This document shows positions 5,788-48,637 of a stretch of 63,902 nt of DNA, one piece after another. The stretch spans positions 1-63,902 of the forward strand of contig DATBVX010000125.1 in the NCBI GenBank assembly GCA_036515135.1, in the 5' to 3' direction. Position 1 is the stretch's first letter. Each line of letters begins with the position of its first letter. The DNA comes from Steroidobacteraceae bacterium. Lineage in GTDB: Bacteria > Pseudomonadota > Gammaproteobacteria > Steroidobacterales > Steroidobacteraceae. The position numbers were made by a program, and so were the translations under genes. Under the pieces are notes generated by a model. The model had not been told where the DNA came from and did no database searches. It worked only from the letters and a program-made list of their open reading frames with translations.

Positions 5788-6184
5788 GCGCCAACGCGGT
5801 GCTCGTTTCAAGCGGCCGGTTTTGCGCCTGCCAGGCCAGGATGTCGCCCTCGAGATGCCAGAGCCGCTCGAATCCGTTGGCGCTGAGCACCTCGAGCGCG
5901 AGGTTCGAGCGCCGGCCCGAACGGCAATACACCACCACGTCCTTCGACTTGTAGGTCGCAAGCTCGGGCAGACGCGCTGCGACCTGATCGTGCGCCACGT
6001 TGACCGCGCCGGGAACGTGGCCCGCGGCAAACTCTTCGGGCGTACGCACGTCCAGAATCACGAGATTGGCGTCTTTCTGCGCCAGGCGAGCGAGCAGGGC
6101 CTCCTGGCCGATCAGACCGATCTCCCCTGCGATCAACGGCGTGGCAATGAGCGCGCCCATCAGAATAATCAGCACGCGGCGCAT
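5750..6184 (-). CDS. Periplasmic single-domain rhodanese (sulfurtransferase)
   Basis: ATG 6184 is preceded by GGAGGA. Signal peptide MRRVLIILMGALIATPLIAG and active-site loop CRSGRRS. The 3' end overlaps the convergent metB-like gene by 38 nt. Confidence 0.8.
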   Translation of the reverse strand: MRRVLIILMGALIATPLIAGEIGLIGQEALLARLAQKDANLVILDVRTPEEFAAGHVPGAVNVAHDQVAARLPELATYKSKDVVVYCRSGRRSNLALEVLSANGFERLWHLEGDILAWQAQNRPLETSTALAPTPDATPAPDPQ

Positions 6185-6224
6185 CGTGAGTCCTCCGGCA
6201 TTCAATCGGCGGTCGATTCGGCCT

Positions 6225-6429
6225 TCATTCCTTGAGGATGAAAGTCACCTTGAGTCGCACCCGATACTCGGTGATCCGACCCTTCTCAACCATGGCCTCC
6301 TGGCTCGCGACCCCAGGCCGCGGTAACGCCCTTGAGCGTCTTGGAGGCGCGCTCGACTCCGGAGGTAACGGCATCGTCGAAGCTCTTCGACGATGAGGCA
6401 ATGACCTCTGTGACTCGTGCGACGGACAT
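6225..6429 (-). pseudogene. Dodecin-family gene interrupted by a 1-nt frameshift
   Basis: ATG 6429 with SD GGGAGG encodes MSVARVTEVIASSSKSFDDAVTSGVERASKTLKGVTAAW. The rest of the dodecin fold (VASQEAMVEKGRITEYRVRLKVTFILKE*) continues in another frame. The switch occurs at the G4 run (C4 on + strand, 6311-6314). The span is 205 nt, which is 3n+1. Confidence 0.7.
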
Positions 6430-6515
6430 GCGTTCCTCCCTGCCCCCGGGCAGCTGGAATTCGGTAATTGAGGACCATGCAAGCCTACTGCTGTTCCCGG
6501 CCGGGAGCCATTTCC

Positions 6516-6866
6516 TTAGTCGCAAAGCCGCGGCGTGAGCAGAAAGTACCGGTCGCGGCGGACGAATCCGCGGCGTTCGTAGTACCGCTGCGCGTCGGCG
6601 TTGTCGCGTCGCACTTCGAGATGCAAGGCAACCACGCCCTCGGCACGCGCCGCTTCCCCGGCAGCCTCGAGAGCGCGAGTTCCCACCCCGCGCCCGCGGA
6701 AGGGCTCGTGGATGAACCATACGCGTCCGAGGCTCCGGTTTCCGAGCAGAGCGAGCATCGCGCGCCTGGAGTCGAACTCAAGTCGATCGAACTCGCTGTA
6801 TTCCTGCATGAGCGGTAACAGGTGATCGATATCCTCGGGGAGCGCGCGATGGAGAACGTTACCCAT
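6516..6866 (-). CDS. GNAT-family acetyltransferase, abnormally short (probable in-frame internal deletion)
   Basis: It has the N-terminal helix (EDIDHLLPLMQEYSEFDRLEFD), then motif A RGRGVGTRALE and the C-terminal NADAQRYYERRGF. Only ~6 residues (GRVWFIHEP) lie where the central beta-strands normally sit. Confidence 0.6.
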   Translation of the reverse strand: MGNVLHRALPEDIDHLLPLMQEYSEFDRLEFDSRRAMLALLGNRSLGRVWFIHEPFRGRGVGTRALEAAGEAARAEGVVALHLEVRRDNADAQRYYERRGFVRRDRYFLLTPRLCD

Positions 6867-6913
6867 GGCAGCGGGAGTTTACAGCCCGGTCTTAGAATCT
6901 ATAGATTGGCGCG

Positions 6914-7546
6914 ATGTTGCGTACTTGGGCATTCGCGGGCGCCGGTGTGCTGATCGCCCTGGGTGCGTGCGAGCCCTCTCAGGCACCCGATACCCCGTTG
7001 CCCGCGGCGGGGACGTCTCTCACACTCGCGCAGCTACGCAGCGCCGAGTACCGCTCGCAGTGGCCGGCGACGGGCCTCGCACGCCTCGTGAATGGCCTGT
7101 ATCGCGAGCGGGCCGCCCCCGGCTCGGCCACCGAGATCCTGGTCCGAGCCACCGATTGGTATGCCTTCGGTGATCTCGACGCCGATGGCCTACCCGATGC
7201 GGTCATCGTCCTGGAGGCTGATCCTGGCGGCAGCGGTGTGTTCTTCGACCTCGTGCCAGTGCTCAATCGTGGCGGCCAGGCCATGCCGCTGACACCCACT
7301 TTGCTCGGCGATCGCGTGGAGATCGAGTTCGTCGAGATCTCGAGCGACGGCAGCGTGAGCGTGCAGATGATCAAGCACGGGCCCGACGACCCGCAGTGCT
7401 GCCCCACCCTCGATGTCATTCAGCGCTATCGGCTCAAGGGCGAGCAGCTCATCGAGGAGAATCAGGAGCCCAGCCGCTTGAGCGCTTCGCCACTCACGCG
7501 AAAAGTGGTCCATTCCTTGACCCCGACGGCGCCCACCTTCTCGTAG
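6914..7546 (+). CDS. Hypothetical lipoprotein
   Basis: Lipobox VLIALGAC at the N-terminus. No recognisable domain. The 3' end overlaps the convergent GNAT gene by 85 nt. Confidence 0.5.
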   Translation: MLRTWAFAGAGVLIALGACEPSQAPDTPLPAAGTSLTLAQLRSAEYRSQWPATGLARLVNGLYRERAAPGSATEILVRATDWYAFGDLDADGLPDAVIVLEADPGGSGVFFDLVPVLNRGGQAMPLTPTLLGDRVEIEFVEISSDGSVSVQMIKHGPDDPQCCPTLDVIQRYRLKGEQLIEENQEPSRLSASPLTRKVVHSLTPTAPTFS

Positions 7547-10702: not shown

Positions 10703-11655
10703 TTGCTCACAACTGCCGGCGCCACCTCGACCGTGATTGGATAGTGATCCGATCCGAGGTACTCGCCCACGTCGAAGGCCCAGGCCTGCACTCCGGCGGT
10801 CGCGAGGCAGTGGTCGATCTGGATGAAGAGCGGTGGAAACCAGGCTGGCCAGGTCGGAGTCAGCCCCGCATCCGGGACGCAGCGACGCAACCCGCCCTCG
10901 CGCAGCGCTTGCTGAAAGACCGGTGAGAAAGGCGTGGTGTTGAGGTCGCCGACGATCACCAGCGGGCCAGTGTGATCGCGCGCGAGCTGCGCCAGCGCAG
11001 CCAGCTGCGAATTGCGCACTTTGGAATTGTGCTCGCCGAACGGCCAGCTGAGATGCGTGCCCAGCACCGAGATCGACCCACCCTCCGATTCGAACGTGAG
11101 CAGATAGGACGGCACGCCGTTGCGCGCGAGGTCGAGAGTGTTCGAGTGATGCGGCGCCGCGCGACTCAGTACTGCGATTCCGGTCACGTCGCTGCCGGCG
11201 TTGATCCAGCGGTGCGGATAGTCTGCCGCGAGCTGGCGAATGCTCGGCAGCCATTCCGGCGTGATTTCCAGCAGCACCAGCACATCTGGTCGCTCGCGGC
11301 GCACGCGGTCGAGCATACGCGCGTACTGCCGATTGAAACCAAAGACGTTGAATGACATGAGCCGCAACCGGTGGCCAGACTTTTCCAGCACAGCTTGCGG
11401 AGGTTGCAGAAAGAGTGGCGCGACCGGCAGCAGATTTGCCGCCCCGAGTGCCACAGCGAGAAGCACCCAGCGATCGCGGCAAAGCACGCTTAGGACCAAC
11501 GCCAGCAGCAGCGCGGCAATGACGTACTGCACGCGAAAATGAGAGAAAAGATCGAAGGCCCACCACAGAGCGCCCGCAAACCCGAACAGGGTCGCCGCGA
11601 CAAGGAGCACAAGCGCGAGGCGGGCGAGAAAGGCGACGCGACGGGGATCAAGCAT
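10690..11655 (-). CDS. Endonuclease/exonuclease/phosphatase (EEP) family protein with N-terminal membrane anchor
   Basis: Three N-terminal TM helices are followed by EEP motifs (MSFNVF..., LVLLEITPEW, IVGDLNTTP, GSDHYPITVEV). Confidence 0.8.
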   Translation of the reverse strand: MLDPRRVAFLARLALVLLVAATLFGFAGALWWAFDLFSHFRVQYVIAALLLALVLSVLCRDRWVLLAVALGAANLLPVAPLFLQPPQAVLEKSGHRLRLMSFNVFGFNRQYARMLDRVRRERPDVLVLLEITPEWLPSIRQLAADYPHRWINAGSDVTGIAVLSRAAPHHSNTLDLARNGVPSYLLTFESEGGSISVLGTHLSWPFGEHNSKVRNSQLAALAQLARDHTGPLVIVGDLNTTPFSPVFQQALREGGLRRCVPDAGLTPTWPAWFPPLFIQIDHCLATAGVQAWAFDVGEYLGSDHYPITVEVAPAVVSKVGS

Positions 11656-11696
11656 CGAGTCGGTGGCTTAAGAGTTGCGGGGCACTGTTGTGAGGG

Positions 11697-12173
11697 TCAG
11701 CTGCCGGAGGACGTTACCTGCACGGGAATGTGGCGCACGATGCCCTGACCATAGAACAGGTCGATGTGACGGACTCCACGGGTCCGGCGCGCGGCGTCCC
11801 GGATCGCGTTGAGCAGGTGAAAGAGCACGTGATCATTCGCGCGATCCCCGGCACCCGAATAGGCTTCGGCGACACCCACGTGGACGATGACGAAGCGCTC
11901 CTCGCCTTCGCGCAGGAACACGGCGACGCCAATCGGCGCGCCGGAAGGGCCCGCCGGCGACACTGCAAACAGGGTCTGAACCTCCGGGACTCCCTCCAGC
12001 CCGATGCGTATCGCTCCATCGCGGACCACGATCTGGGGGAGGCCATACCGGTCGACAGTGGCCTCGATGCGCGTCCGGACCACAGGTTGCAGGCGATTGA
12101 AGAACAGCAGCTCTTCGAGCGCCGCCCGGTGCTCGGCGCCGATGCGGGAAGTGATGGCGAATGGCCGGGTCAT
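11697..12173 (-). CDS. Hypothetical protein
   Basis: Clean 158-aa ORF downstream of nothing recognisable. No motif identified. Confidence 0.45.
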   Translation of the reverse strand: MTRPFAITSRIGAEHRAALEELLFFNRLQPVVRTRIEATVDRYGLPQIVVRDGAIRIGLEGVPEVQTLFAVSPAGPSGAPIGVAVFLREGEERFVIVHVGVAEAYSGAGDRANDHVLFHLLNAIRDAARRTRGVRHIDLFYGQGIVRHIPVQVTSSGS

Positions 12174-12256
12174 GCGGATAGCATCATTGACAGACTTATC
12201 TCACAGAATCGGTTTGACGCGGCGCAGCAGGCTACTTCTGACGCGGCGGACTCCGT

Positions 12257-14359
12257 ATGGTACGTGCGGAGACCGCCGTGCGAAGGAACCAGATGCCACT
12301 GGAAGCACCCGAGAACGATCGCATCGCCGAGGTAGCGGCGCAGTTGGTCGCGGGTGGGCAGCCCGTAGAAATCCTAGTGCTCACTCCGGATTCCGGCCTG
12401 CTCGCCATCCTGCACGAGGCGACCGGGGAGGAACAGGAACTCTGGCACGCAACCGCGCGTGAGCAGACTTCCGAGCTGCTTCTTTCCGGCAAGGTCGGTG
12501 TCATCGTCATCGACACGCTCGCCACGGGTGCGGATTGCGCCTCTTTCTGCGATCAACTGCGTGCGCAATTCCCGGACGTCATCCTGGTCGTTGCAGGCAC
12601 CACCAGCGATCAGACCGAACTGGTCAAGTACATCACGTCGGGCGACATTTATCGTTTTCTGCACAAGCCCGTTTCGCCGCCGCGCGCGCGAAATGCCATC
12701 GACGCCGCGATTCGACGTCACATCGAGGGCCGTACGATTGCGGCGGCGGAGACCGAGCCCAAGCCGAGCCGCAGCCGCCTGCCGGTCTATCTCGGGTTCG
12801 GCGCCGCAATTCTGGTGATCGCAGGTGTCATCGCCGCCGTCATGCTGAGCGATGGTGACCAGAGCGAGCTCTCGCAGGTCGCCCCGAGTGTGGCGCCGGT
12901 GCCTGCTCCCGCAGTCGTGTCATCGCCTGGCGAACCGGCTCGAGACACGACAGCCGGCGCGGTTCCGGGAAGTCTCGAGCCGGCAGCGCCGGAACCGATC
13001 GATGAGCGCCTCACGTGGCTCGCCGCCGCCCAGGCTGCATACGCATCAGGCAAGCTCACGGCCGCAGATGGCGAAGGCGCGGCGGACTATTACCAACACG
13101 TGCTCGCAAAGTATCCGGATGATCCGGAGGCCGCCGCGGGCCTCGACGCCATAGCCGATCATCTGCTCACGAGCGCCGAGAATGCGCTGCTCGAGGGGCG
13201 GGTCGAAGACGCGGCGCGCGACATCGAGGCGGTGCGCACGGTCCGCCCGAACAACATGCGCGTGGCATTCCTGAGTGCGCAGCTTGGCAAGGAGCGCGAG
13301 CGGCGCCTGATCGCCCAGGCGCGCGAGGCGGCAGCGGGCGGCAATTACACGCGCGCGCGCGCCTTGCTCGAGCGCGCGGCGCAGGGTCAGCAGTCACCTT
13401 CCGCGGCAGTGCAGGCGGCGCGCCGCGAGCTCGCACAGCAACGGCTCGGCAGCAATGCCGATTCATTGCTGCGTTCGGCCGGCGAGCGTCTGCAGCAGGG
13501 CAAGCTGGTCGAGCCTGCGGGTGACAGCGCCAAGTCGTTCATCGAAGCGGCGCTCGCCGCCGATCCCGCCAACGCGAAGGCGCAGCAGGTGCGCCGCGTG
13601 CTCGCTGACCAGACCTTGCAGAAGTCACGACAGGCCATCGCGCGCCGCGATTTTGCCGCGGCCGAGACCTGGCTCCAGCATGCCGAATCACTGGGCGCAA
13701 GCGCGCGCAGCACCAGACGCGAACTGCAGGCGGCACGCGTGTCGAATGCGCGCGCCGACCGGCAGGCGCAGCTCGTTGCATTGGTCAACGAGCGCATTAC
13801 CCAGTCGAGTCTGCTGACGCCATCACAGGACAGCGCCAAGCACTACTGGCTCGAGCTCAAAGCCGCCGATCCGGGCAACGCGCAGTTGCCGGGCCTGCTC
13901 CAGACGCTCGGCTACCGCCTCACTCAACAGGCGCAGGTCGAATACCTGGGCCGCCGATATGACGCCGCGCAGGCAATGCTCACGGAAGCCAAGTCGCTCG
14001 GCTATTCCTCGAGCGAAGTCACCGAGCTCGAAGCGCAGCTTGCAGAGCAGCGCGCCCGTGCAGCGTTCCTCGCCGAGGTCGTTCCTGCGCACACCCTGGC
14101 GCGCGACAGGTACGTCGAACCACGATATCCGTCCGGGGCGGTTCGCAAAGGCGTCCAGGGGTGGGTGGAATTGGACTTCACGGTCGGGGTGGATGGTTCC
14201 GTGAAGGACATCGAAGTGCGCGCGGCCGAACCCGTTGGCGTGTTCGAAGAAGCAGCTGCCAAGTCAGTGTCGCAGTGGCGCTATCGCCCGCTCATGCGTA
14301 ACGGTCGCGCCGTTGAGCAGCGGGCGCGGCTTAGGATGAGGTTCGCGTTAGAGAAGTAG
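12257..14359 (+). CDS. Receiver-like domain / TM / TPR-like repeat / TonB C-terminal domain protein
   Basis: N-terminal CheY-like pattern (VIVIDTL ... VILVVAGTTS ... FLHKPV). TM helix LPVYLGFGAAILVIAGVIAAVML, Ala/Pro linker, long Ala-rich helical repeats, and C-terminal TonB_C (YPSGAVRKGVQGWVELDFTVGVDGSVKDIEV...WRYRP). The start is uncertain (12257 or 12293). Confidence 0.75.
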   Translation: MVRAETAVRRNQMPLEAPENDRIAEVAAQLVAGGQPVEILVLTPDSGLLAILHEATGEEQELWHATAREQTSELLLSGKVGVIVIDTLATGADCASFCDQLRAQFPDVILVVAGTTSDQTELVKYITSGDIYRFLHKPVSPPRARNAIDAAIRRHIEGRTIAAAETEPKPSRSRLPVYLGFGAAILVIAGVIAAVMLSDGDQSELSQVAPSVAPVPAPAVVSSPGEPARDTTAGAVPGSLEPAAPEPIDERLTWLAAAQAAYASGKLTAADGEGAADYYQHVLAKYPDDPEAAAGLDAIADHLLTSAENALLEGRVEDAARDIEAVRTVRPNNMRVAFLSAQLGKERERRLIAQAREAAAGGNYTRARALLERAAQGQQSPSAAVQAARRELAQQRLGSNADSLLRSAGERLQQGKLVEPAGDSAKSFIEAALAADPANAKAQQVRRVLADQTLQKSRQAIARRDFAAAETWLQHAESLGASARSTRRELQAARVSNARADRQAQLVALVNERITQSSLLTPSQDSAKHYWLELKAADPGNAQLPGLLQTLGYRLTQQAQVEYLGRRYDAAQAMLTEAKSLGYSSSEVTELEAQLAEQRARAAFLAEVVPAHTLARDRYVEPRYPSGAVRKGVQGWVELDFTVGVDGSVKDIEVRAAEPVGVFEEAAAKSVSQWRYRPLMRNGRAVEQRARLRMRFALEK

Positions 14360-25431: not shown

Positions 25432-26097
25432 TCATGTCGCCGGGTGACGGCGGCGCCAGGTGAGCGCGACCGGAATCAGCGATGCAATGATGATGATGAT
25501 CGTCACGACGCCGAAGTTGTTCTTGACGATGGGGATGTTGCCAAAGAGGAAGCCGCCCCAGATGAACAGCGCCACCCAGGTGATCCCGCCGACGCAATTG
25601 TGGAGCTGGAATCGCCCGTAACGCATGCGGCCGACTCCGGCAACGAATGGCGCGAAGGTGCGCACGATCGGCACGTAGCGCGACAGGAAGATTGTTTTGC
25701 CGCCGTGGCGATCGAAGAATTCTTCCGTGCGCCTCAGGTACGCGACCTTCAGAAAGCGCACGTCGCCGCTGAACGCACGTGGCCCGATGGCCGCGCCGAT
25801 CGCGTAATTGGTGCTGTTGCCGAGGATCGCGGCCGCCGCCAGCAGCAGCCACGCGTACAAAGGATTCAGCGTGCCGCTCGAATCCACCGCCGCCAGCGCA
25901 CCCACCGCGAACAGCAGCGAATCGCCCGGCAGGAACGGCGTCACGACCAGCCCCGTTTCGGCAAAGATGATCAGAAACAGGATCGCGTAGACCCAGGTGT
26001 CGAATCGCAAAACCAGCTCGACCAGGTGGCGGTCGAGATGGAGGATGAAGTCGATGAAGTAAAGGCCGAGGTCGATGACCGGTTGCAGCAGCTCCAT
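25432..26097 (-). CDS. DedA-family membrane protein
   Basis: IIFAETGLVVTPFLPGDSLLFAVGALAA is the DedA/SNARE-associated signature. It is the last gene of the cmoA-like operon, 21 nt after the upstream stop. Confidence 0.85.
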   Translation of the reverse strand: MELLQPVIDLGLYFIDFILHLDRHLVELVLRFDTWVYAILFLIIFAETGLVVTPFLPGDSLLFAVGALAAVDSSGTLNPLYAWLLLAAAAILGNSTNYAIGAAIGPRAFSGDVRFLKVAYLRRTEEFFDRHGGKTIFLSRYVPIVRTFAPFVAGVGRMRYGRFQLHNCVGGITWVALFIWGGFLFGNIPIVKNNFGVVTIIIIIASLIPVALTWRRRHPAT

Positions 26098-26118
26098 GCC
26101 GCGATTCTAGACGGAGCC

Positions 26119-26859
26119 TCAGTCCGGTGGCGATGAATTGGCGATTCGACGCGCCGCGACCCAGAAGGCGAAACGGATGCCGATCACCGCCAGCATCAGT
26201 GCGATGAGCCACTCTCGCCCGCCCAACTCGCCCGCGCGCCAGAGATTGACGAGCGCGATCAGCGCGATTGCCGAGAGCCAGTCGAAGGGCTTGGCATACT
26301 CCTTGACCAGCACGCGCCTGCGATCGAACTGCATGCCGGCGATGGTCGCCCGCAGCCCCTTGAGCATCGGTACCCAGCGGGAAACCCGCGCGCAATACGC
26401 ATCGAATTCCGCACCGAACCTGCCGCGAAGAAAATGCTCTTCCGCGGCCACGATGGCACGGTGCATGGCGAGCGCCAGCGGCACGCCGACCAGTGCGAAC
26501 ACCCAGGAGTTTGACGCGAGCGCGAGGCCCAGGATCAGGAAGAAATTGCCGACGTACATCGGGTTGCGGCAATGGCTGTACAAGCCGCCGGTCACCAGCT
26601 GCTCTGCGTACACGCGATGATCCCGGCCTCCGCGGATGATGTAGGCGAGCCCGACAGTCGCGGAGCGGATGAACTGGCCGAGGAGCGCGGCGCCGAGACC
26701 CAGACAAGCCATCAGGGCGATGTTGCTCGAGAGCTGGGGCGAAGGAACGAGCAGCAATACCACCGCGATGGGCAGCATCAAGCCGCGACGCCGGAACGAA
26801 ATGTCGCCAGCTCGCACCAGAAGTGGCGACTGCCGGATCGCTGATTGAGCGACGTTCAC
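26119..26859 (-). CDS. ICMT/PEMT-family integral-membrane methyltransferase (paralog 1)
   Basis: GTG 26859 overlaps the chorismate mutase stop (GTGA). Motifs GLYSHCRNPMYVGNFFLILGLAL and AEEHFLRGRFGAEFDAYCARVSRW. Confidence 0.8.
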   Translation of the reverse strand: MNVAQSAIRQSPLLVRAGDISFRRRGLMLPIAVVLLLVPSPQLSSNIALMACLGLGAALLGQFIRSATVGLAYIIRGGRDHRVYAEQLVTGGLYSHCRNPMYVGNFFLILGLALASNSWVFALVGVPLALAMHRAIVAAEEHFLRGRFGAEFDAYCARVSRWVPMLKGLRATIAGMQFDRRRVLVKEYAKPFDWLSAIALIALVNLWRAGELGGREWLIALMLAVIGIRFAFWVAARRIANSSPPD

Positions 26860-27191
26860 GACGCCCCTCCGCGACCGCGACCCGCGAACGCGCGCGCGGC
26901 GAGCGAGCGCGCCGCCTCGAAGATGCTGTGAAATATCGCTTCGATCTCGCGCCGGTCGTAAAGCTCGAGCGACTGCGTGGTGAGCTCGGCGATCATGGCC
27001 GATTCGCGCGCGCGGTCGTGCAGCGCGATGCCACGTCGCTGTTTGAGGTGCATGACCTTCAAAGCCAATGCACCGCGTCGTTCCAGCAATCGCAGCAGCT
27101 CGACGTTGACCTCATCGATGCTGCGTCGAAGGCGCGTGATCTCCTGCGCGCCGGGATCGGATGGTGCGACCCACTGCTCAGTTTCAAGCAT
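26856..27191 (-). CDS. AroQ-class chorismate mutase (monofunctional)
   Basis: ATG 27191 with AGGAG. ITRLRRSIDEVNVELLRLLERRGALALKVMHLKQ... is a typical CM_2 helix pattern. 111 aa. Confidence 0.8.
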   Translation of the reverse strand: MLETEQWVAPSDPGAQEITRLRRSIDEVNVELLRLLERRGALALKVMHLKQRRGIALHDRARESAMIAELTTQSLELYDRREIEAIFHSIFEAARSLAARAFAGRGRGGAS

Positions 27192-27206
27192 CCTTAAGGC
27201 TCCTGC

Positions 27207-27917
27207 TCAGTCCGCCACGATCACGCGTGTTCTCTTGGCCGCCCAGGCAGCAGTCCAGAGGCTCGCGGCAAATGTGAGTGTCACGATCAGGGCCGTGTGG
27301 AAGCCCGCATGTTGCGCGGACAGCGCATGGTCTTGCGCCAGGCGCATCAGGCCCAGGAGGCTCAGGCCCCCGATCCAGCCACACACCGTTCCGTATTCCT
27401 TCACGACCAGGCGGCGCCAATGAAACGTCGTGTCCCGCAGGGATTGCCGCAGCCCGTTGAGGCGCAGGCTCCAGCGCGGCACCCGCTGACAGTAGGCAGC
27501 AAAGGCCGCACCGAACTCGCGGCGCAGGAACTCCTCCTCGGCCGCGACAATGCACGCATATGCAAGCACGAACAGCGGCACGGCCGTCGCCAGGCACGCC
27601 CACGAATTCGCTGCGATCGTGACGCCAATCAGGATCAGCATGTTACCGATGTACATCGGGTTACGGGTGTGCGCATACAGCCCGTCAGTCACGAGATCCC
27701 GCGCATACACGCGACGCTGCCGCCCCCCGCGGATGATGTACTTGAGCCCGATCGTGAGCGCGCGAACCGTCTGCCCGAGCAGTGCACAGGCGGCACCGAC
27801 GGCGAGCGCGATCATGGGGTCGGCAAACAACCTCGGGCCGGGCAGGAGAACCAGCGCAAACGCGCAGGGAAACAGCATGTTTCGGTAGCGAAACAGGAGC
27901 CGGCCGAGCGCGCTCAC
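27207..27917 (-). CDS. ICMT/PEMT-family integral-membrane methyltransferase (paralog 2)
   Basis: GTG 27917 forms a GTGA overlap with the cmoA-like stop; the alternative upstream start is 27953. Motifs GLYAHTRNPMYIGNMLILIGVTI and AEEEFLRREFGAAFAAYCQRVPRW. Confidence 0.8.
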   Translation of the reverse strand: MSALGRLLFRYRNMLFPCAFALVLLPGPRLFADPMIALAVGAACALLGQTVRALTIGLKYIIRGGRQRRVYARDLVTDGLYAHTRNPMYIGNMLILIGVTIAANSWACLATAVPLFVLAYACIVAAEEEFLRREFGAAFAAYCQRVPRWSLRLNGLRQSLRDTTFHWRRLVVKEYGTVCGWIGGLSLLGLMRLAQDHALSAQHAGFHTALIVTLTFAASLWTAAWAAKRTRVIVAD

Positions 27918-28651
27918 TGCTTCACCGCGATCATGCCGCTGAAGTTGTACCACTTGAAAAAGACATCGACGAAACGAAAGCCGGTGCGCAGCAAGAGCTC
28001 GCGGTTCTCGAGCACTTTGTAGGGAACCAGCACGTTCTCGAGCGCCTCGCGCTTTTGCGTGATCTCGAGCTCGCTGTAGCCGTTGCGCCGCTTGAGCTCG
28101 TAGTAGTACTTGATGAAGAGCCGGTTGAGGAGCGAGTCCTCACCGAGCACCTTCTCGACCACCAGCAGGCAACCGTTGGGACGCAGGCCGCGAAAGATAT
28201 CCGCGATCAGCCGGTCCCGATTGAGCGGCCGGATGAACTGCAGCGTGAGGACGAGCAGCACCACCGAGGCGTCCTGGATCCGCACGCCGTCGTTGAGGTC
28301 CAGACACAGCAGCTCGTAGGGCCGCTTCAGGCCGTGCTCAGCCAGCTTGGCGCGGCATTTCTGCAGCATCTCGGGGGAATCGTCGATGCCGACGAAGCGC
28401 ACGCTGGGATGAACCCCCGGATCCAGGTTGAGAAAAGTCGTGCCGGTCGAGCAGCCGAAGTCGTACACCGCCGTGTCCGGAACGGCGAAATCGGCCGTCA
28501 TTTCGGCGACCATGCGCTGAATCTCGACGTAGAACGGGACCGAGCGCGTCACCATGTCGTCGAAGACGCCCGCAACCTCCTGGCCGAAGTGAAAATCGTC
28601 CACTTCTTCCTTTTCAGCCCGAAACACCTGGTCGCGCGCGCGTTCCTGCAT
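27914..28651 (-). CDS. cmoA: CmoA-family carboxy-S-adenosyl-L-methionine (Cx-SAM) synthase homolog
   Basis: Collinear with my recollection of E. coli CmoA across the whole length: FGQEVAGVFDDMVTRSVPFY, VYDFGCSTG, IDDSPEML, LTLQFIRPLNRDRLIADIFRGLRPNGCLLVVEK, RNGYSELEITQKREALENV, YNFSGMIAVK. Confidence 0.85.
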   Translation of the reverse strand: MQERARDQVFRAEKEEVDDFHFGQEVAGVFDDMVTRSVPFYVEIQRMVAEMTADFAVPDTAVYDFGCSTGTTFLNLDPGVHPSVRFVGIDDSPEMLQKCRAKLAEHGLKRPYELLCLDLNDGVRIQDASVVLLVLTLQFIRPLNRDRLIADIFRGLRPNGCLLVVEKVLGEDSLLNRLFIKYYYELKRRNGYSELEITQKREALENVLVPYKVLENRELLLRTGFRFVDVFFKWYNFSGMIAVKQ

Positions 28652-28756
28652 GGCCGTTTGACGGGCTGTCGCGCCATAATCCGTCGCGGCGCGACGGAAT
28701 GGGCCCGTGGCAGCCGTCCAACGAGCAGCGCCCCAGTCCTGGACTGACGATTACAG

Positions 28757-29380
28757 ATGGCCGAACACCCGCAAGACCTGCAGCTGGCGCGACGCCTGGT
28801 CGCCGGCGACGAGCGGGAATTCACGCGTTTCTTCGACGAGTACTACCCACGGGTCTTTCGCTTCGCCCTTGCCCGCCTGCGGCGCGACACCGATGCGGCG
28901 GACGAGATGGCGCAAAGGACCTTGTGCCGTGCCGCGCGCAAATTGCACCTCTATCGCGGCGAAGCGTCCCTGTTCACATGGCTGTGCCAGATCTGCCGGC
29001 ACGAGATCCACGACCACGCGGAATCGCTGGCGCGAGAGGCCGCCCGCTTCGTATCGGTCGATGAGGACCCGACAATCCGCGCCGCGCTCGAATCGCTGCC
29101 GGCGGACGCTCACAGCGACCCTGTCGGAGTGGCGAATCGCGCCGACGTATTGCGCCTCGTGCAGGTGGTTCTCGACTATCTGCCGGCGGGTTACGGCAAC
29201 GCGCTCGAATGGAAGTACGTCGAGGGGCTGGAGGTCACTGAGATTGCGGCGCGTCTTCAGGTCACACCGCTCGCCGCCGAATCGACGCTGGCGCGAGCAC
29301 GGCGCGCATTCCGGGAGGGCTGGCTCAGCGTGACGGGGGAATGCCTCCCCGATGCGCTGGCCGGGGAGTCAGGTTCATGA
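28757..29380 (+). CDS. ECF (group IV) sigma-70 factor
   Basis: Region 2 (FFDEYYPRVFRFALARL ... LFTWLCQICRHEI) and region 4 (VEGLEVTEIAARLQVTPLAAESTLARARRAF). Confidence 0.9.
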   Translation: MAEHPQDLQLARRLVAGDEREFTRFFDEYYPRVFRFALARLRRDTDAADEMAQRTLCRAARKLHLYRGEASLFTWLCQICRHEIHDHAESLAREAARFVSVDEDPTIRAALESLPADAHSDPVGVANRADVLRLVQVVLDYLPAGYGNALEWKYVEGLEVTEIAARLQVTPLAAESTLARARRAFREGWLSVTGECLPDALAGESGS

Positions 29381-30393
29381 ACCACAAACCCACGAATTCA
29401 ACGCGCTCGAAGTCGGACCCGATCGGTGAGCTGGTCCATTCCGCCGGACCGCGCGCGCTTCCGGATGCCGAGCGCATGGCGCAGGCCCGACTGTCCGTGC
29501 ACACCGAGTGGCGCTCGAGCCTTGAGAGCCGACTCCGGGAACGCCGCCGGTGGCTGAGCGCGGCAGCGGTCGCAGCGATCGCCATTGGCGTTGGCATCGT
29601 CATGTTGCTGCAGCCCGCGCCGGCGGTGCAGGTGGCCACCACCAGCCGGATCGTCGGTACCGTCTCGGTGCAGCGTCCCGCGGGGACGGATGTCAGAACG
29701 GCCGCGCTGCGCGGTGAGGAACGGCTGCTGGTTGGCGACTGGCTGAAGACCGATGCGGAGAGCCGCGCACTGATTCGATGGGAACGGGGCGCCTTGATCC
29801 GCGTGGATCAACACTCGCGGCTCAAGCTCGAATCCGATCGCTCGCTGCGGCTCGAGCAGGGCGCGCTGTACGTTGAAGTCGATGAGCGGGCGGAAATCGC
29901 GCCGGACATCACGGTGTTCACGGCGCTCGGAACAGTTCGGCACGTCGGCACACGATTCGAGGTGCGCGTAACCGAAGGCGCGATGCAGGTGCGAGTGAGG
30001 GATGGAACGGCCGTGTTCAAGGGCGAGTCTCTGGCCGCAACGCTGATCGGCGCCGGGCAGCAGCTGTCGATCAATGGCGACCAGGCGCGGCTCGAGCAGG
30101 GGCCGCCGGCTGCGGATTCATCCTGGGAATGGACGCGGCGAATCGCACCGGACTTCGCGATCGAAGGCCGTTCGGTGTTCGATGCGCTTGAATGGCTGGG
30201 ACACGAGAGCGGCCTCGAGATTCGTTACGCAGACGACGCGGTGCAGGCACAGGCACGCACCGCCGTCCTTCACGGCAGCATCGAGGGGCTGGCCATGCGC
30301 GAGGCCCTGATCGCCGTGTTGACGGGCAGCGGCCTGTCATTCGAACTGGCGGCGGATCGCGTGGAGATCCACAGGAGCCCGGAAAGAACATAG
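29377..30393 (+). CDS. FecR-family anti-sigma / transmembrane sensor
   Basis: ATG 29377 overlaps the sigma stop (ATGA). Single TM (AAVAAIAIGVGIVMLL) and a periplasmic FecR domain. Confidence 0.8.
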   Translation: MNHKPTNSTRSKSDPIGELVHSAGPRALPDAERMAQARLSVHTEWRSSLESRLRERRRWLSAAAVAAIAIGVGIVMLLQPAPAVQVATTSRIVGTVSVQRPAGTDVRTAALRGEERLLVGDWLKTDAESRALIRWERGALIRVDQHSRLKLESDRSLRLEQGALYVEVDERAEIAPDITVFTALGTVRHVGTRFEVRVTEGAMQVRVRDGTAVFKGESLAATLIGAGQQLSINGDQARLEQGPPAADSSWEWTRRIAPDFAIEGRSVFDALEWLGHESGLEIRYADDAVQAQARTAVLHGSIEGLAMREALIAVLTGSGLSFELAADRVEIHRSPERT

Positions 30394-30443
30394 GGGCATG
30401 ACGCAACTGCCGTGCGGGTGAGCAGGATGTACCATCTGCCGGC

Positions 30444-32762
30444 ATGTCATGGATCCCCCGCCGCAGGACTCTGAGAGTCCTCGCCTGCCTCTTTGCGGGC
30501 TGGGCCCTAGTCCCCTCTGCCACGGCGGGTGAGGGCGTCACCGGTCGCCCGGTCGCCGAAATCCTGCGCGAAGCGGCCGGCCCGGGAGTGCAGGTCGTCT
30601 TCTCGGATGAGTTGGTGCCTCCGGATCTGCTGGCCTTAGTTGAGCCCACTGCGAAGGAACCCGTAGCAAGATTGCGGGAGATACTGCGCCCCCACGACCT
30701 CGCACTCGTGGAGCTGGCCCCTGGCCGATACGTCGTAGCGCGCCGCGACTCCGCTCCCGGCCCCGGCAGTGCGCGCTCACGTCCGATACCCACGGCCGTA
30801 GCGCCGATCGAGGAAGTGCGCGTGATCTCGAGCCGCTACACGCTGGCGGCGGAGCGGCTCGATCGGCCGTTCGAGCTCGATTCAGCCGACCTGCGGCAAC
30901 AGCCGGCATTGTTCGATGATGCGTTGCGCGGCGTGCGGCGCTTTCCAGGCACGGCCGGCAGCGGATTGTCCTCGCGCACGTTCGTACGCGGCGGCGTATC
31001 GGACGAAAACCTGCTGCTCCTGGACGGCGTGCAGTTGCAGGATCCGTTTCATCTAGCCGGGCTGCCGGCGGATTTCAGCGTGATCGACCCGGCGGTGCTT
31101 GGGCGCATTGATTTCTATTCCGGCGTCCTGCCGGTCGAGTACGGCAACCGCATGAGCTCCGCCATCGACATGCACACGCGCGGCGGCGCGGACGCGTTCG
31201 GCGGCCGGCTCGCGCTCGGGACGGTGAACGCCTCGGCGCTGCTTGAAGGCCCGCTGCCCGAAGGCCACGGTGACTGGCTGGTGTTCGTGCGACGCGGGCT
31301 GATCGACGTGGCTGCGCACTATCTCGATCCGGATTTCGGCCAGCCCGTGTTGACCGATTCGCTTGGACGAGTTCGCTTTCACCTCGGAGAAGACGCCGTC
31401 ATCACGCTCGGTGGCCTCGGCGCCGATGATGATCTGCAGTTGTCCGTCAACGACGGGGATGAGACGACGAGCGCCGAGAACGATCGCAGCTACGCGTGGG
31501 GGGCACTCGATCAGAGCTGGGCGCGCACCCAGGCGCGCACACTGCTCGCACACACCTCAGCGAGCGTGAGCCGTCACGGGGACCTGCAGGACGGCGCGGG
31601 ATCACTTGGCAGCGTGGACGACAACCGCAAGCTGGAATCGACCGTGCTCAAGCAGGACTGGTCGACGCGACTGGCCGACGAGGGCAGCTTGCGCTGGGGT
31701 GTCTCGCTGCGCCGAGACGAGGCGGAATACGACTACCAGCGCCTGGTGACGTTTCCGGCAGACGTTGCGGCGCTGTTCGATCGGTCGACACTGTCACAGT
31801 ACGCGCTCGCGACCGACGTCAGGCTCGAGCAGATCGACGCCTACATCGGCCTGCGAAAGGTCTTGAGCTCGCGGTGGACTGTCGATGGCGGCGCCCGCTG
31901 GAGCCAGGCGGACTACTCCACGAGTCAACACGAGTCAGCATGGGACGCGCGGCTGGGTCTGCTCTACTCCTTCTCGCCCGCCACGCGCATTCGCCTGTCG
32001 TGGGGCCGGATGACTCAATTCTGGGGAGCCGCCGAGCTGCCGGTCGAGCGCAATCGCGCGCTGTTCGACCCGGCTTCGACGAGCGACATGCGCGTGCTGG
32101 CATGGGAACACGACTTTGCCAGCGGGTTGTCGCTCCGGACCGAGCTCTTCGACAAGCGCACTGGCGATCCGCGCTCGCGAACCGAAAACATCGTCGATCC
32201 CATCGCGCTCGTGCCGGAACTTCGTGCCGACGAGATGTTGATCGACCCCGACTTGGGCCGCACCACCGGATTCGATGTTCATGCTGCCGGACCGATCGGT
32301 GACCACGTGCAGGCCTCGCTGAGTTACAGCTGGTCGCATGCGCGCGACACGATCGACGGTCGGGAGTTCGCGCGCTCCTGGGACCAGAGGCATTCGCTCA
32401 CGCTGGGACTCGGCATGGAGCGCGGCAACTGGCTATTGAGCATGCTGCTCACCGCGCGCTCCGATTGGCCCATGACGCCTGTGGCCGAGATCGCGACGTC
32501 CCCGGGGGTACAGATCGGCGAGAGAAATTCCGAGCGCGAGGAATTTTTCCTCACCGTCGATCTCAAAGCCGAGCGCAGCTTCAGGCTCGAGGTGGGATCG
32601 CTGCACGTCGCGCTCGAGCTTGCCAACGCGCTCAATCGCGAAAACTTCTGCTGTACCGAGCTGGACTACGGGCGAGCCCCGAGCGGCGAGCTCGCCGTGA
32701 CCGCCGAGCGCAAGAACTGGCTGCCGATCGTGCCGTACGCGTCGGTCGCCTGGGAGTTCTGA
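30444..32762 (+). CDS. TonB-dependent transducer (receptor with N-terminal STN signalling domain)
   Basis: Signal peptide, STN-like VAEILREAAGPGVQVVFSDELV, plug (FVRGG..NLLLLDGVQL), beta-barrel, and C-terminal ...SVAWEF. Confidence 0.85.
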   Translation: MSWIPRRRTLRVLACLFAGWALVPSATAGEGVTGRPVAEILREAAGPGVQVVFSDELVPPDLLALVEPTAKEPVARLREILRPHDLALVELAPGRYVVARRDSAPGPGSARSRPIPTAVAPIEEVRVISSRYTLAAERLDRPFELDSADLRQQPALFDDALRGVRRFPGTAGSGLSSRTFVRGGVSDENLLLLDGVQLQDPFHLAGLPADFSVIDPAVLGRIDFYSGVLPVEYGNRMSSAIDMHTRGGADAFGGRLALGTVNASALLEGPLPEGHGDWLVFVRRGLIDVAAHYLDPDFGQPVLTDSLGRVRFHLGEDAVITLGGLGADDDLQLSVNDGDETTSAENDRSYAWGALDQSWARTQARTLLAHTSASVSRHGDLQDGAGSLGSVDDNRKLESTVLKQDWSTRLADEGSLRWGVSLRRDEAEYDYQRLVTFPADVAALFDRSTLSQYALATDVRLEQIDAYIGLRKVLSSRWTVDGGARWSQADYSTSQHESAWDARLGLLYSFSPATRIRLSWGRMTQFWGAAELPVERNRALFDPASTSDMRVLAWEHDFASGLSLRTELFDKRTGDPRSRTENIVDPIALVPELRADEMLIDPDLGRTTGFDVHAAGPIGDHVQASLSYSWSHARDTIDGREFARSWDQRHSLTLGLGMERGNWLLSMLLTARSDWPMTPVAEIATSPGVQIGERNSEREEFFLTVDLKAERSFRLEVGSLHVALELANALNRENFCCTELDYGRAPSGELAVTAERKNWLPIVPYASVAWEF

Positions 32763-45320: not shown

Positions 45321-47786
<2,466 letters not shown>

Positions 47787-47830
47787 GCTGCTTGCCTGCC
47801 GGGGCCCTGGGCTCGATACTGCCGCCCGCC

Positions 47831-48637
47831 ATGGCCACCGCCAGCTCAAGCTTACGCGTGCGGCCCGCGGCCGTCTCGGGCCTCTTCTATCCGGACGACC
47901 CTCGCGAGCTCGAGGACGCGCTGCAGGCGCTGTTGCCCGTTGACAACGTCGAGCGCCCCGCGCCCAAAGCCCTGATCGCCCCGCACGCGGGCTATGTCTA
48001 TTCTGGCCCGACCGCTGCGGCTGCTTTTCGACTGCTCAAAGCTGCGGCAGCGCGGATTCGCCGCGTGGTGCTGATCGGGCCGAGCCACCGCGTGCCGTTT
48101 CATGGATTGGCGGTGCCCTCGGTGGATGCCTTTGACACGCCGCTCGGACGCATTCCGATCGACGTCGAGGCCCGGCGCGCGCTGCTCGAACTGACACAGG
48201 TACGGCTCACCGATTCGCCCCACGCGCAGGAACACAGCCTCGAAGTGCAGCTGCCGTTTCTGCAGGCGATGCTGAAAGGCTTTGTACTCTTGCCAATCGC
48301 AGCTGGCGATGCCATGTCCATGGAAGTCGCGGAGGCACTCGAACTCGTCTGGGGCGACCCCGAGACGCTCGTCGTCGTGAGCACGGACTTGAGCCACTAC
48401 CACGACTATGAACAGGCGCGGCTCATCGATCGCGCGACCAACGAAGCCGTGCTCGCGTACTCGTCGCGGATCGACGGCGAACAGGCGTGCGGCTGCGTCG
48501 GCCTCAACGGATTTCTCGCCGTCGCGCGCCGGCGCCGGATGCGGATCCAGCTCGAGGATTTGCGCAGTTCGGGCGACACGGCCGGCGATCGCAAGCGCGT
48601 CGTGGGTTACGGCGCCTGGTCACTTTACGATGCTTGA
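47831..48637 (+). CDS. MEMO1-family protein (AmmeMemoRadiSam system protein B)
   Basis: ATG 47831. VSGLFYPDDPRELEDAL, APHAGYVYSGPTAA, HSLEVQLPFLQ. Confidence 0.85.
   Translation: MATASSSLRVRPAAVSGLFYPDDPRELEDALQALLPVDNVERPAPKALIAPHAGYVYSGPTAAAAFRLLKAAAARIRRVVLIGPSHRVPFHGLAVPSVDAFDTPLGRIPIDVEARRALLELTQVRLTDSPHAQEHSLEVQLPFLQAMLKGFVLLPIAAGDAMSMEVAEALELVWGDPETLVVVSTDLSHYHDYEQARLIDRATNEAVLAYSSRIDGEQACGCVGLNGFLAVARRRRMRIQLEDLRSSGDTAGDRKRVVGYGAWSLYDA

Follow-up and report, generated by a model that had tools for sequence, protein, structure and literature searches.

The stretch of DNA considered here, referred to below as the window, is contig DATBVX010000125.1 of the Steroidobacteraceae bacterium assembly GCA_036515135.1 (63,902 nucleotides (nt), about 64 kb), and its subject is a minus-strand cluster of five genes in which a homologue of CmoA, the enzyme producing carboxy-S-adenosylmethionine (Cx-SAM), is found with two membrane proteins of the isoprenylcysteine carboxyl methyltransferase (ICMT) family. 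The genes are arranged in the order CmoA homologue, ICMT-like paralogue 2, chorismate mutase, ICMT-like paralogue 1 and DedA (Table 1), and a preliminary description made from the sequence gave their coordinates, order and packing correctly. GTGA start/stop overlaps, read in the sequence, couple the CmoA gene to that of paralogue 2 (27917-27914) and the chorismate mutase gene to that of paralogue 1 (26859-26856), while intergenic gaps of only 15 nt (paralogue 2 to chorismate mutase) and 21 nt (paralogue 1 to DedA) separate the others. An upstream GTG at 27953 is a less likely start for paralogue 2 than the GTG at 27917, since a homologue 93% identical to it (P0121) is 236 aa long and in the near-identical relatives L164-L166 a 4-nt overlap joins the gene to the CmoA stop. 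These relatives have matching gene calls, 4-nt overlaps and flanking genes, the exception being the DedA position in L165, and the five-gene operon is stable among close relatives. No terminators above chance were seen inside the operon in a scan, and a consensus scan gave no sigma-70-like site in the 105-bp upstream region, the promoter and terminator matches of the operon being at chance level.

Table 1. Genes of the operon and its upstream region, in window coordinates
Feature	Coordinates	Strand	Evidence or remark
CmoA-type carboxy-SAM synthase, 245 aa, operon gene 1	27914..28651	-	TIGR00740
ICMT/PEMT-family membrane transferase, paralogue 2, 236 aa	27207..27917	-	PF04191; conserved partner type
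AroQ-class chorismate mutase, 111 aa, presumed prephenate supply for CmoA	26856..27191	-	PF01817
ICMT/PEMT-family membrane transferase, paralogue 1, 246 aa	26119..26859	-	PF04191, PF04140
DedA-family membrane protein, 221 aa, last gene	25432..26097	-	NF008102, VTT domain
Intergenic, 105 bp, upstream of operon; presumed promoter region	28652..28756	.	Open reading frame map; shared with divergent ECF sigma gene

The product of the first gene matches CmoA along its full length, as the preliminary description had stated. It scores 247.8 bits against the TIGR00740 equivalog model (cut-off 193.3) and 178 bits against the enterobacterial model PRK15451, below the 285 cut-off of the latter, and all of it can be aligned with two solved structures of CmoA, 1IM8 (E = 1.5e-53) and 4GEK (E = 1e-49), with 37% identity to E. 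coli CmoA. The ...SELEITQKR... segment noted there is found in this alignment too, the window segment ...GYSELEITQKREALENV... pairing with E. coli ...GYSELEISQKRSMLENV..., and the arginine therein is Arg199. This residue salt-bridges the extra carboxylate of Cx-SAM and is kept in CmoA relatives and not in ordinary S-adenosylmethionine (SAM) methyltransferases (Byrne et al., PMC3663124). Across 69 aligned family members Tyr39, Asp62, Gly64, Asp89, Glu164 and Arg199 are invariant, and the cofactor ligand Asp117 is also conserved in the window protein. It seems from these residues, and indirectly from the recurrent linkage to chorismate mutase described below, that the CmoA of the window clade would make Cx-SAM from SAM and prephenate.

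How the CmoA gene is placed in other genomes was addressed from two directions. A forward search with the window CmoA against one genome per GTDB species gave 79 loci of 61-77% identity, to which L002 was added by separate retrieval, and a reverse search with an alignment of the ICMT-like proteins against metagenomes gave 80, making 160 related loci for comparison in total (genes in the high-GC loci were called with a filter on third-position GC content, GC3). In L002 and in all but one of the GTDB loci (78/79, or 79/80 with L002) the gene immediately after CmoA is ICMT-like, the sole forward exception being L081, where an Rce1-like CPBP gene and CmoA are followed by an unrelated gene and the ICMT-like gene is missing. 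From the other side a bona fide CmoA adjoins the ICMT-like gene in 70 of the 80 metagenome loci, and of the ten remaining five have too little flank, four have room and no CmoA, and one (L146) has another methyltransferase. In L146 (4737-6298) the gene beside the ICMT-like one is convergent and its product, 27-31% identical to CmoA proteins and with a Thr at position 199, is probably not a Cx-SAM synthase, for which reason this locus is left out of the CmoA count. By extrapolation, no more than 20 nt lie between the end of CmoA and the beginning of the ICMT-like gene in 135 of 144 loci, and such tight spacing together with the two-way adjacency identifies the conserved unit as a coupled two-gene module of CmoA and an ICMT-like protein, a near-obligate arrangement far beyond chance. 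No cmoB homologue was found in the window or in the 160 related loci by tblastn with E. coli CmoB. The non-tRNA role claimed at the outset for this CmoA holds as far as comparative genomics reaches, given the adjacency, the lack of cmoB in those loci and the gene fusions detailed below. The five genes had been put forward as one co-occurring system, of which CmoA with one ICMT-like transferase stands; the chorismate mutase is an accessory, a second paralogue is unusual and DedA is found in one lineage only.

Two types of module can be distinguished. In the common type CmoA is followed by the ICMT-like gene and sometimes then by a chorismate mutase gene, and in the second type (L105, L106, L109, L145 and L155) the order is ICMT1-like, chorismate mutase and a second clade of CmoA, CmoA', whose members are 43-49% identical to the window CmoA and keep Arg199 and the other ligands. 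Paralogue 1 of the window is 62-65% identical to the ICMT-like protein of the second type and paralogue 2 is of the common type, and so the window operon joins transferases of both lineages behind one CmoA. A mirror-tree comparison of the identity matrices for CmoA and for the ICMT-like proteins gave r = 0.58, a value that does not discriminate, since any pair of genes taken from one set of genomes will correlate. As labelled, the hosts of the module include Steroidobacteraceae, Nevskiaceae and other Gammaproteobacteria, Betaproteobacteria, Verrucomicrobiota, Brocadiaceae (anammox Planctomycetota), Myxococcota, Nitrospirota and NC10, and the confidently assigned hosts are all diderm bacteria. 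Some metagenome-assembled genomes carry the labels Bifidobacteriaceae, Akkermansia muciniphila or Ca. Methanoperedens (L011, L015, L024, L030, L052); these odd labels look like mis-binning or wrong taxonomy, the locus content resembling that of other Verrucomicrobiota or Proteobacteria loci. Ca. Brocadia sapporoensis (L038) has two CmoA/ICMT-like pairs, at 6001-7305 and 11091-12395 and so about 5 kb apart, each preceded by a LAB_N gene, and a third, distant ICMT-like gene at 612-1067; the double pair may have arisen by tandem duplication or be an artefact of assembly. The complete genome of Ca. Brocadia pituitae (AP021856) is a further carrier of the module.

Both membrane paralogues pass the PF04191 (PEMT) model, with 47.0 bits for paralogue 2 and 46.7 bits for paralogue 1 (cut-off 25), and against PF04140 (ICMT, cut-off 24) paralogue 1 scores 26.6 bits and paralogue 2 22.0, below threshold. 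They are 40% identical to each other and both carry an RGG and an RNPxY motif, which in paralogue 2 are Y60-I-x-R63-G64-G65 and R85-N86-P87-x-Y89; Y60, R63, G64, G65, R85, N86, P87, Y89, E127, L131 and F135 are among the invariant positions of the subfamily. RNPxY is invariant in both alignments that were made, Ma-ICMT carries RHPMY at its place, and the canonical RHPxY is thus not matched by the window paralogues. A profile search of 1.84 billion representatives gave 302 clusters at E<=1e-30, 8062 at 1e-10 and 33107 at 1e-3, from which the ICMT-like proteins appear as a discrete subfamily within a large superfamily, and among the 150 best representatives RNPxY is found in 146, RHPxY in 3 and the RGG loop in 135. 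The AlphaFold2 model of a database homologue of the paralogue 2 type is all-helical (predicted local distance difference test, pLDDT, 88.6; predicted template-modelling score, pTM, 0.86). Its top Foldseek matches are the ICMT structures 5V7P, 4A2N and 5VG9 (probability 1.00, E = 5e-3, TM-score 0.33-0.40), covering a core of about 120 residues for the eukaryotic entries 5V7P and 5VG9 and 190 columns at a root-mean-square deviation of 17.9 Å for 4A2N, and so the predicted fold of the subfamily is ICMT-like. Public names for these proteins are isoprenylcysteine carboxyl methyltransferase family or Ste14, and there is no specific NCBIfam model for the subfamily, the best match for both paralogues being the model TIGR04571 of LmtA, the lipid A 1-phosphate O-methyltransferase of Leptospira.

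Domain fusions were also seen among the ICMT-like proteins. P0251 (507 aa) has an N-terminal RGG/RNPxY domain fused to a C-terminal classical RHPxY ICMT domain, which hints, by analogy with CmoB then CmoM on tRNA, at carboxymethylation followed by methyl-esterification. In P0382 an ICMT-like domain is joined to an OmpA-family peptidoglycan-binding domain and in P0288 to DUF2141, both of which are consistent with an envelope role.

The chorismate mutase of the window scores 56.6 bits against PF01817 (cut-off 27) and keeps the equivalents of EcCM Arg11, Arg28, Lys39, Asp48, Arg51 and Glu52. By hidden Markov model search 26 of the 160 loci, of both module types, have a CM_2 domain in or near the module, and in L002 and L035, loci 92% identical at the DNA level, this domain forms an in-frame extension of the ICMT-like protein at its C-terminus. 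Of the 150 best representatives five (P0271, P0291, P0295, P0303 and P0305) are such ICMT-like/CM_2 fusions, each standing for a separate cluster at 50% identity. The only biochemical tie of a chorismate mutase to these genes that we know of is the consumption of prephenate by CmoA, and so the CM_2 fusion connects the membrane protein to Cx-SAM synthesis. The private prephenate supply that had been suggested is therefore a recurrent accessory of the module and not a universal part of it.

DedA is a different matter. The window protein passes NF008102 (245.6 bits, cut-off 236) and has a VTT domain (PF09335, 64.4 bits), yet DedA accompanies the module only in the window and in L164 and L166, with one weak match elsewhere (L043), and at the DedA position of L165 there is an opposite-strand gene call with no Pfam match. 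Because DedA is confined to one lineage, the flipping or transport of a product that had been assigned to it has no comparative support. DedA proteins are linked to undecaprenyl phosphate recycling and to modification of lipid A with 4-amino-4-deoxy-L-arabinose (Ara4N); DedA fits a lipid theme, yet it is a lineage-specific add-on outside the conserved system.

Clues to the acceptor come from the genes beside the module. In Brocadiaceae a response regulator, a histidine kinase, an ArnC-like GT2, LAB_N, CmoA, the ICMT-like gene, two ArnT-like genes, an ArnB-like gene and a further GT2 follow one another on one strand, the ArnB-like protein scoring 603 bits, just under the 631 cut-off. A gene for an LpxF-like PAP2 phosphatase lies directly upstream of CmoA in the Verrucomicrobia loci L039 and L042, and a gene for an LpxL-like acyltransferase does so in Chthoniobacter (L062), with an ArnT-like gene nearby. 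In Burkholderiales (L053) the order is CmoA, ICMT-like, EptA (603.8 bits, cut-off 500) and PAP2, and EptA is also present in L061 and L077. The LpxF-like, LpxL-like and ArnT-like neighbours are well below curated cut-offs. Overall at least one lipid A-type neighbour is found in 22 of the 79 loci of at least 8 kb. Most of these neighbours, namely the ArnT-like, EptA and LpxF-like ones, act like LmtA on lipid A phosphates, and by such context, together with LmtA itself and the diderm hosts, lipid A, possibly its phosphate, ranks as the likeliest acceptor.

Other neighbours recur as well. An Rce1-like CPBP protease gene stands beside the module in the gammaproteobacterial loci L010, L020, L031, L032, L034, L065, L066 and L081, in the last of which it directly precedes CmoA on the same strand; eukaryotic Rce1 and ICMT act in sequence. 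Two-component neighbours (PhoR-like and OmpR-type, about 25 loci) were discarded as a regulatory clue, these families being abundant and the clustering lumping unrelated kinases, and local synteny or abundance, not function, accounts for the GFO/IDH/MocA oxidoreductase (17 loci), glycine-cleavage, IspG and DUF885 neighbours.

Taken together these features suggest a pathway in which the AroQ chorismate mutase would turn chorismate into prephenate, the CmoA-type enzyme would make Cx-SAM from prephenate and SAM, and the two RGG/RNPxY membrane proteins would use Cx-SAM in place of SAM, so adding a carboxymethyl group (+58 Da) to some acceptor on the inner membrane's cytoplasmic side. As the acceptor, lipid A or Kdo2-lipid A would be likeliest, and LmtA suggests by analogy that a phosphate is a plausible site; the paralogues may act on two sites or two substrates, and DedA may help to handle a lipid-linked intermediate. 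That the locus is a self-contained route for carboxymethylating a membrane-associated acceptor, most likely lipid A, is given a probability of about 0.7. Within it, consumption by the ICMT-like enzymes of the Cx-SAM from the adjacent CmoA is, on the comparative evidence, very probable, lipid A as the acceptor comes a little short of an even chance, and a lipid A phosphate as the site of modification is doubtful. From the original idea of a lipid or envelope carboxymethylation, then, a non-tRNA CmoA tied to ICMT-like partners is retained, and the candidate acceptor is narrowed to lipid A by the neighbours and the LmtA similarity. A wider and tentative extension is that lipid A (lipopolysaccharide) carries a widespread and unrecognised carboxymethylation, probably on phosphate, made by a first membrane-embedded family of Cx-SAM transferases and supplied through chorismate mutase, CmoA and transferase acting as a chain tethered to the membrane; this may be spread over soil and water Gamma- and Betaproteobacteria, Verrucomicrobiota and anammox Planctomycetota, and in some lineages be co-regulated with Ara4N and phosphoethanolamine decoration.

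Several points weigh against this proposal. To our knowledge carboxymethylation of lipid A has never been observed, and a carboxymethyl group on a phosphate would not lower its negative charge, leaving no obvious benefit. Lipid A neighbours are missing from about 70% of the longer loci, the counts are inflated by the Brocadiaceae loci, which are not independent in phylogeny, and in the window itself a homologue search found no EptA, ArnT, ArnB, ArnC, LpxF, LpxL, LAB_N or CPBP. The LmtA model is matched near full length at 71.4 and 71.7 bits (E about 1e-19) with a cut-off of 325, and so the paralogues are not LmtA orthologues. At the level of residues, binding of the extra carboxylate of Cx-SAM by the RGG arginine is a conjecture, and loop residues 64-66 are the only low-confidence part of the AlphaFold2 model. 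Where E. coli CmoA has Asn132, the window protein has Val and most of the clade Val or Ile, although the backbone contact at this position could persist, and in the chorismate mutase the Ser84/Gln88 region aligns with a gap and low alignment confidence, Gln88 not being evident.

The same Cx-SAM chemistry might be directed to an acceptor other than lipid A: polyprenyl-phosphate or its linked amino sugar, the head group of a phospholipid (for example the phosphatidylethanolamine amine), or a peptide or protein anchored in the membrane and processed by a CPBP protease. The ArnC-like, ArnB-like and LAB_N neighbours and the DedA of the window also fit undecaprenyl-phosphate-linked sugar chemistry, the Pfam family passed by both paralogues is that of PEMT, the phosphatidylethanolamine N-methylase, the CPBP gene adjoins the module in 8 gammaproteobacterial loci, and most loci are without a lipid A neighbour. 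However the CPBP association is confined to one syntenic clade, mostly divergent, and not seen in the window. Those neighbours that reach or come near their curated cut-offs (EptA and ArnB-like) are lipid A enzymes, the lower-scoring LpxF-like, LpxL-like and ArnT-like ones lead in that direction too, and the closest curated full-length family is LmtA and not PEMT or ICMT, so that another acceptor of this kind is judged unlikely. Far less probable again is a small-molecule product, by analogy with MddA, the ICMT-family methanethiol S-methyltransferase, in which a thiol or other diffusible nucleophile would give thioglycolate or an S-methylthioglycolate-like compound. ICMT-family enzymes do accept O, N and S nucleophiles, the neighbours are uninformative at many loci, and both paralogues match the MddA model NF045656 weakly (E about 0.008-0.009); these matches are marginal, however, and the recurrent lipid A and envelope neighbours and the OmpA-like fusion of P0382 favour an envelope macromolecule.

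Equally improbable is that the neighbours are coincidental, the CmoA being an ordinary one for tRNA cmo5U with a distal cmoB and the ICMT-like proteins plain SAM methyltransferases. The window protein does pass the CmoA equivalog model, and its partners do keep the general SAM-binding motifs of their family. Against coincidence stand the adjacency (79/80 and 70/80) over many phyla, with genes mostly overlapping or abutting, the want of a cmoB in any of the 160 loci, and the membership of the partners in a discrete subfamily with its own invariant motifs; a fusion of chorismate mutase to the ICMT-like protein, found in at least five clusters, is something for which a plain SAM methyltransferase gives no reason. 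There might lastly be a division of labour, one ICMT-like protein carboxymethylating and the other, or a distal classical ICMT, methyl-esterifying with SAM in the manner of CmoB then CmoM. Classical ICMTs methylate carboxylates, P0251 joins the two kinds of domain, and L038 and L076 have additional ICMT-like genes, of more remote similarity, close to the module, yet both window paralogues carry the RGG/RNPxY signature and each paralogue type is found alone with its own CmoA in other genomes, so that each looks like a Cx-SAM user and this arrangement is the hardest of all to credit.

Around the operon the window has a MATE transporter gene, a peptidase gene and the divergent set that shares the upstream region, none of which gives a clue to the acceptor. 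The latter, at 28757-32762 (+) and 105 bp from the CmoA start, consists of an extracytoplasmic function (ECF) sigma factor, a FecR-like anti-sigma factor and a TonB-dependent receptor, and it is also kept in L164-L166. Further off, an 842-aa open reading frame at 45321-47849 (-) has radical SAM, intein splicing and LAGLIDADG homing-endonuclease domains, which suggest a radical SAM enzyme interrupted by an intein.

Cx-SAM is a rare cofactor with few known uses, namely tRNA cmo5U, one amino acid derived from a ribosomally synthesised and post-translationally modified peptide, one microcin and one phage DNA base. The view that CmoB is its only characterised consumer is outdated, since TglF and MccB's C-terminal domain (PMC10491745) and the phage DNA enzyme CmoX (PMC12783734) also use it outside tRNA. 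No published description of a CmoA/ICMT-like module was found in literature searches, subscription journals being outside their coverage, and no curated family either, which bears out the initial impression that no system of this type had been described; bioRxiv 2025.10.31.685832, followed as a lead, merely cites TglF. New here would be an ICMT-fold membrane enzyme as the Cx-SAM partner and a lipid as the acceptor. If true, Cx-SAM chemistry would reach lipids and a second, unrelated methyltransferase fold, and many annotations in environmental Gram-negatives as tRNA (cmo5U34)-methyltransferase/CmoA and as isoprenylcysteine carboxyl methyltransferase/Ste14 would be misassigned. It would also mean a new decoration of lipid A that might matter for resistance to cationic peptides, for metal binding or for the stability of the envelope, and a natural membrane carboxymethyltransferase scaffold for the engineering of bio-alkylation.

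Compared with known systems, the module resembles CmoA/CmoB of E. coli tRNA cmo5U34 synthesis in that a CmoA gene lies upstream of and translationally coupled to a presumed Cx-SAM consumer, with prephenate as the donor and Arg199 kept. In contrast to CmoB, a soluble Rossmann-fold tRNA enzyme, the partner here is a membrane protein of the ICMT family, and the module sometimes includes a dedicated chorismate mutase. The clustering of a CmoA homologue with a dedicated carboxymethyltransferase is shared with TglE/TglF (3-thiaglutamate), MccS and MccB's C-terminal domain (Bacillus microcin C) and phage CmoA/CmoX (5-carboxymethylcytosine), whose transferases are, however, soluble class I Rossmann-fold enzymes acting on peptides, nucleotides and DNA, whereas here the fold is a membrane one and the acceptor presumably a lipid. 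With ICMT/Ste14 and PEMT the similarity is one of fold and of the C-terminal cofactor motifs R-x-P-x-Y-x-G and EE..L...FG..Y, but the subfamily has Asn for His in RHPxY and an extra invariant Y-I-x-R-G-G loop, its N-terminal half is unmatched by Pfam models, and its genes are near-obligately linked to a Cx-SAM synthase gene. LmtA is likewise an integral membrane member of the ICMT family and the lipid A neighbourhoods of the module fit with it, although LmtA uses SAM and is not linked to CmoA.

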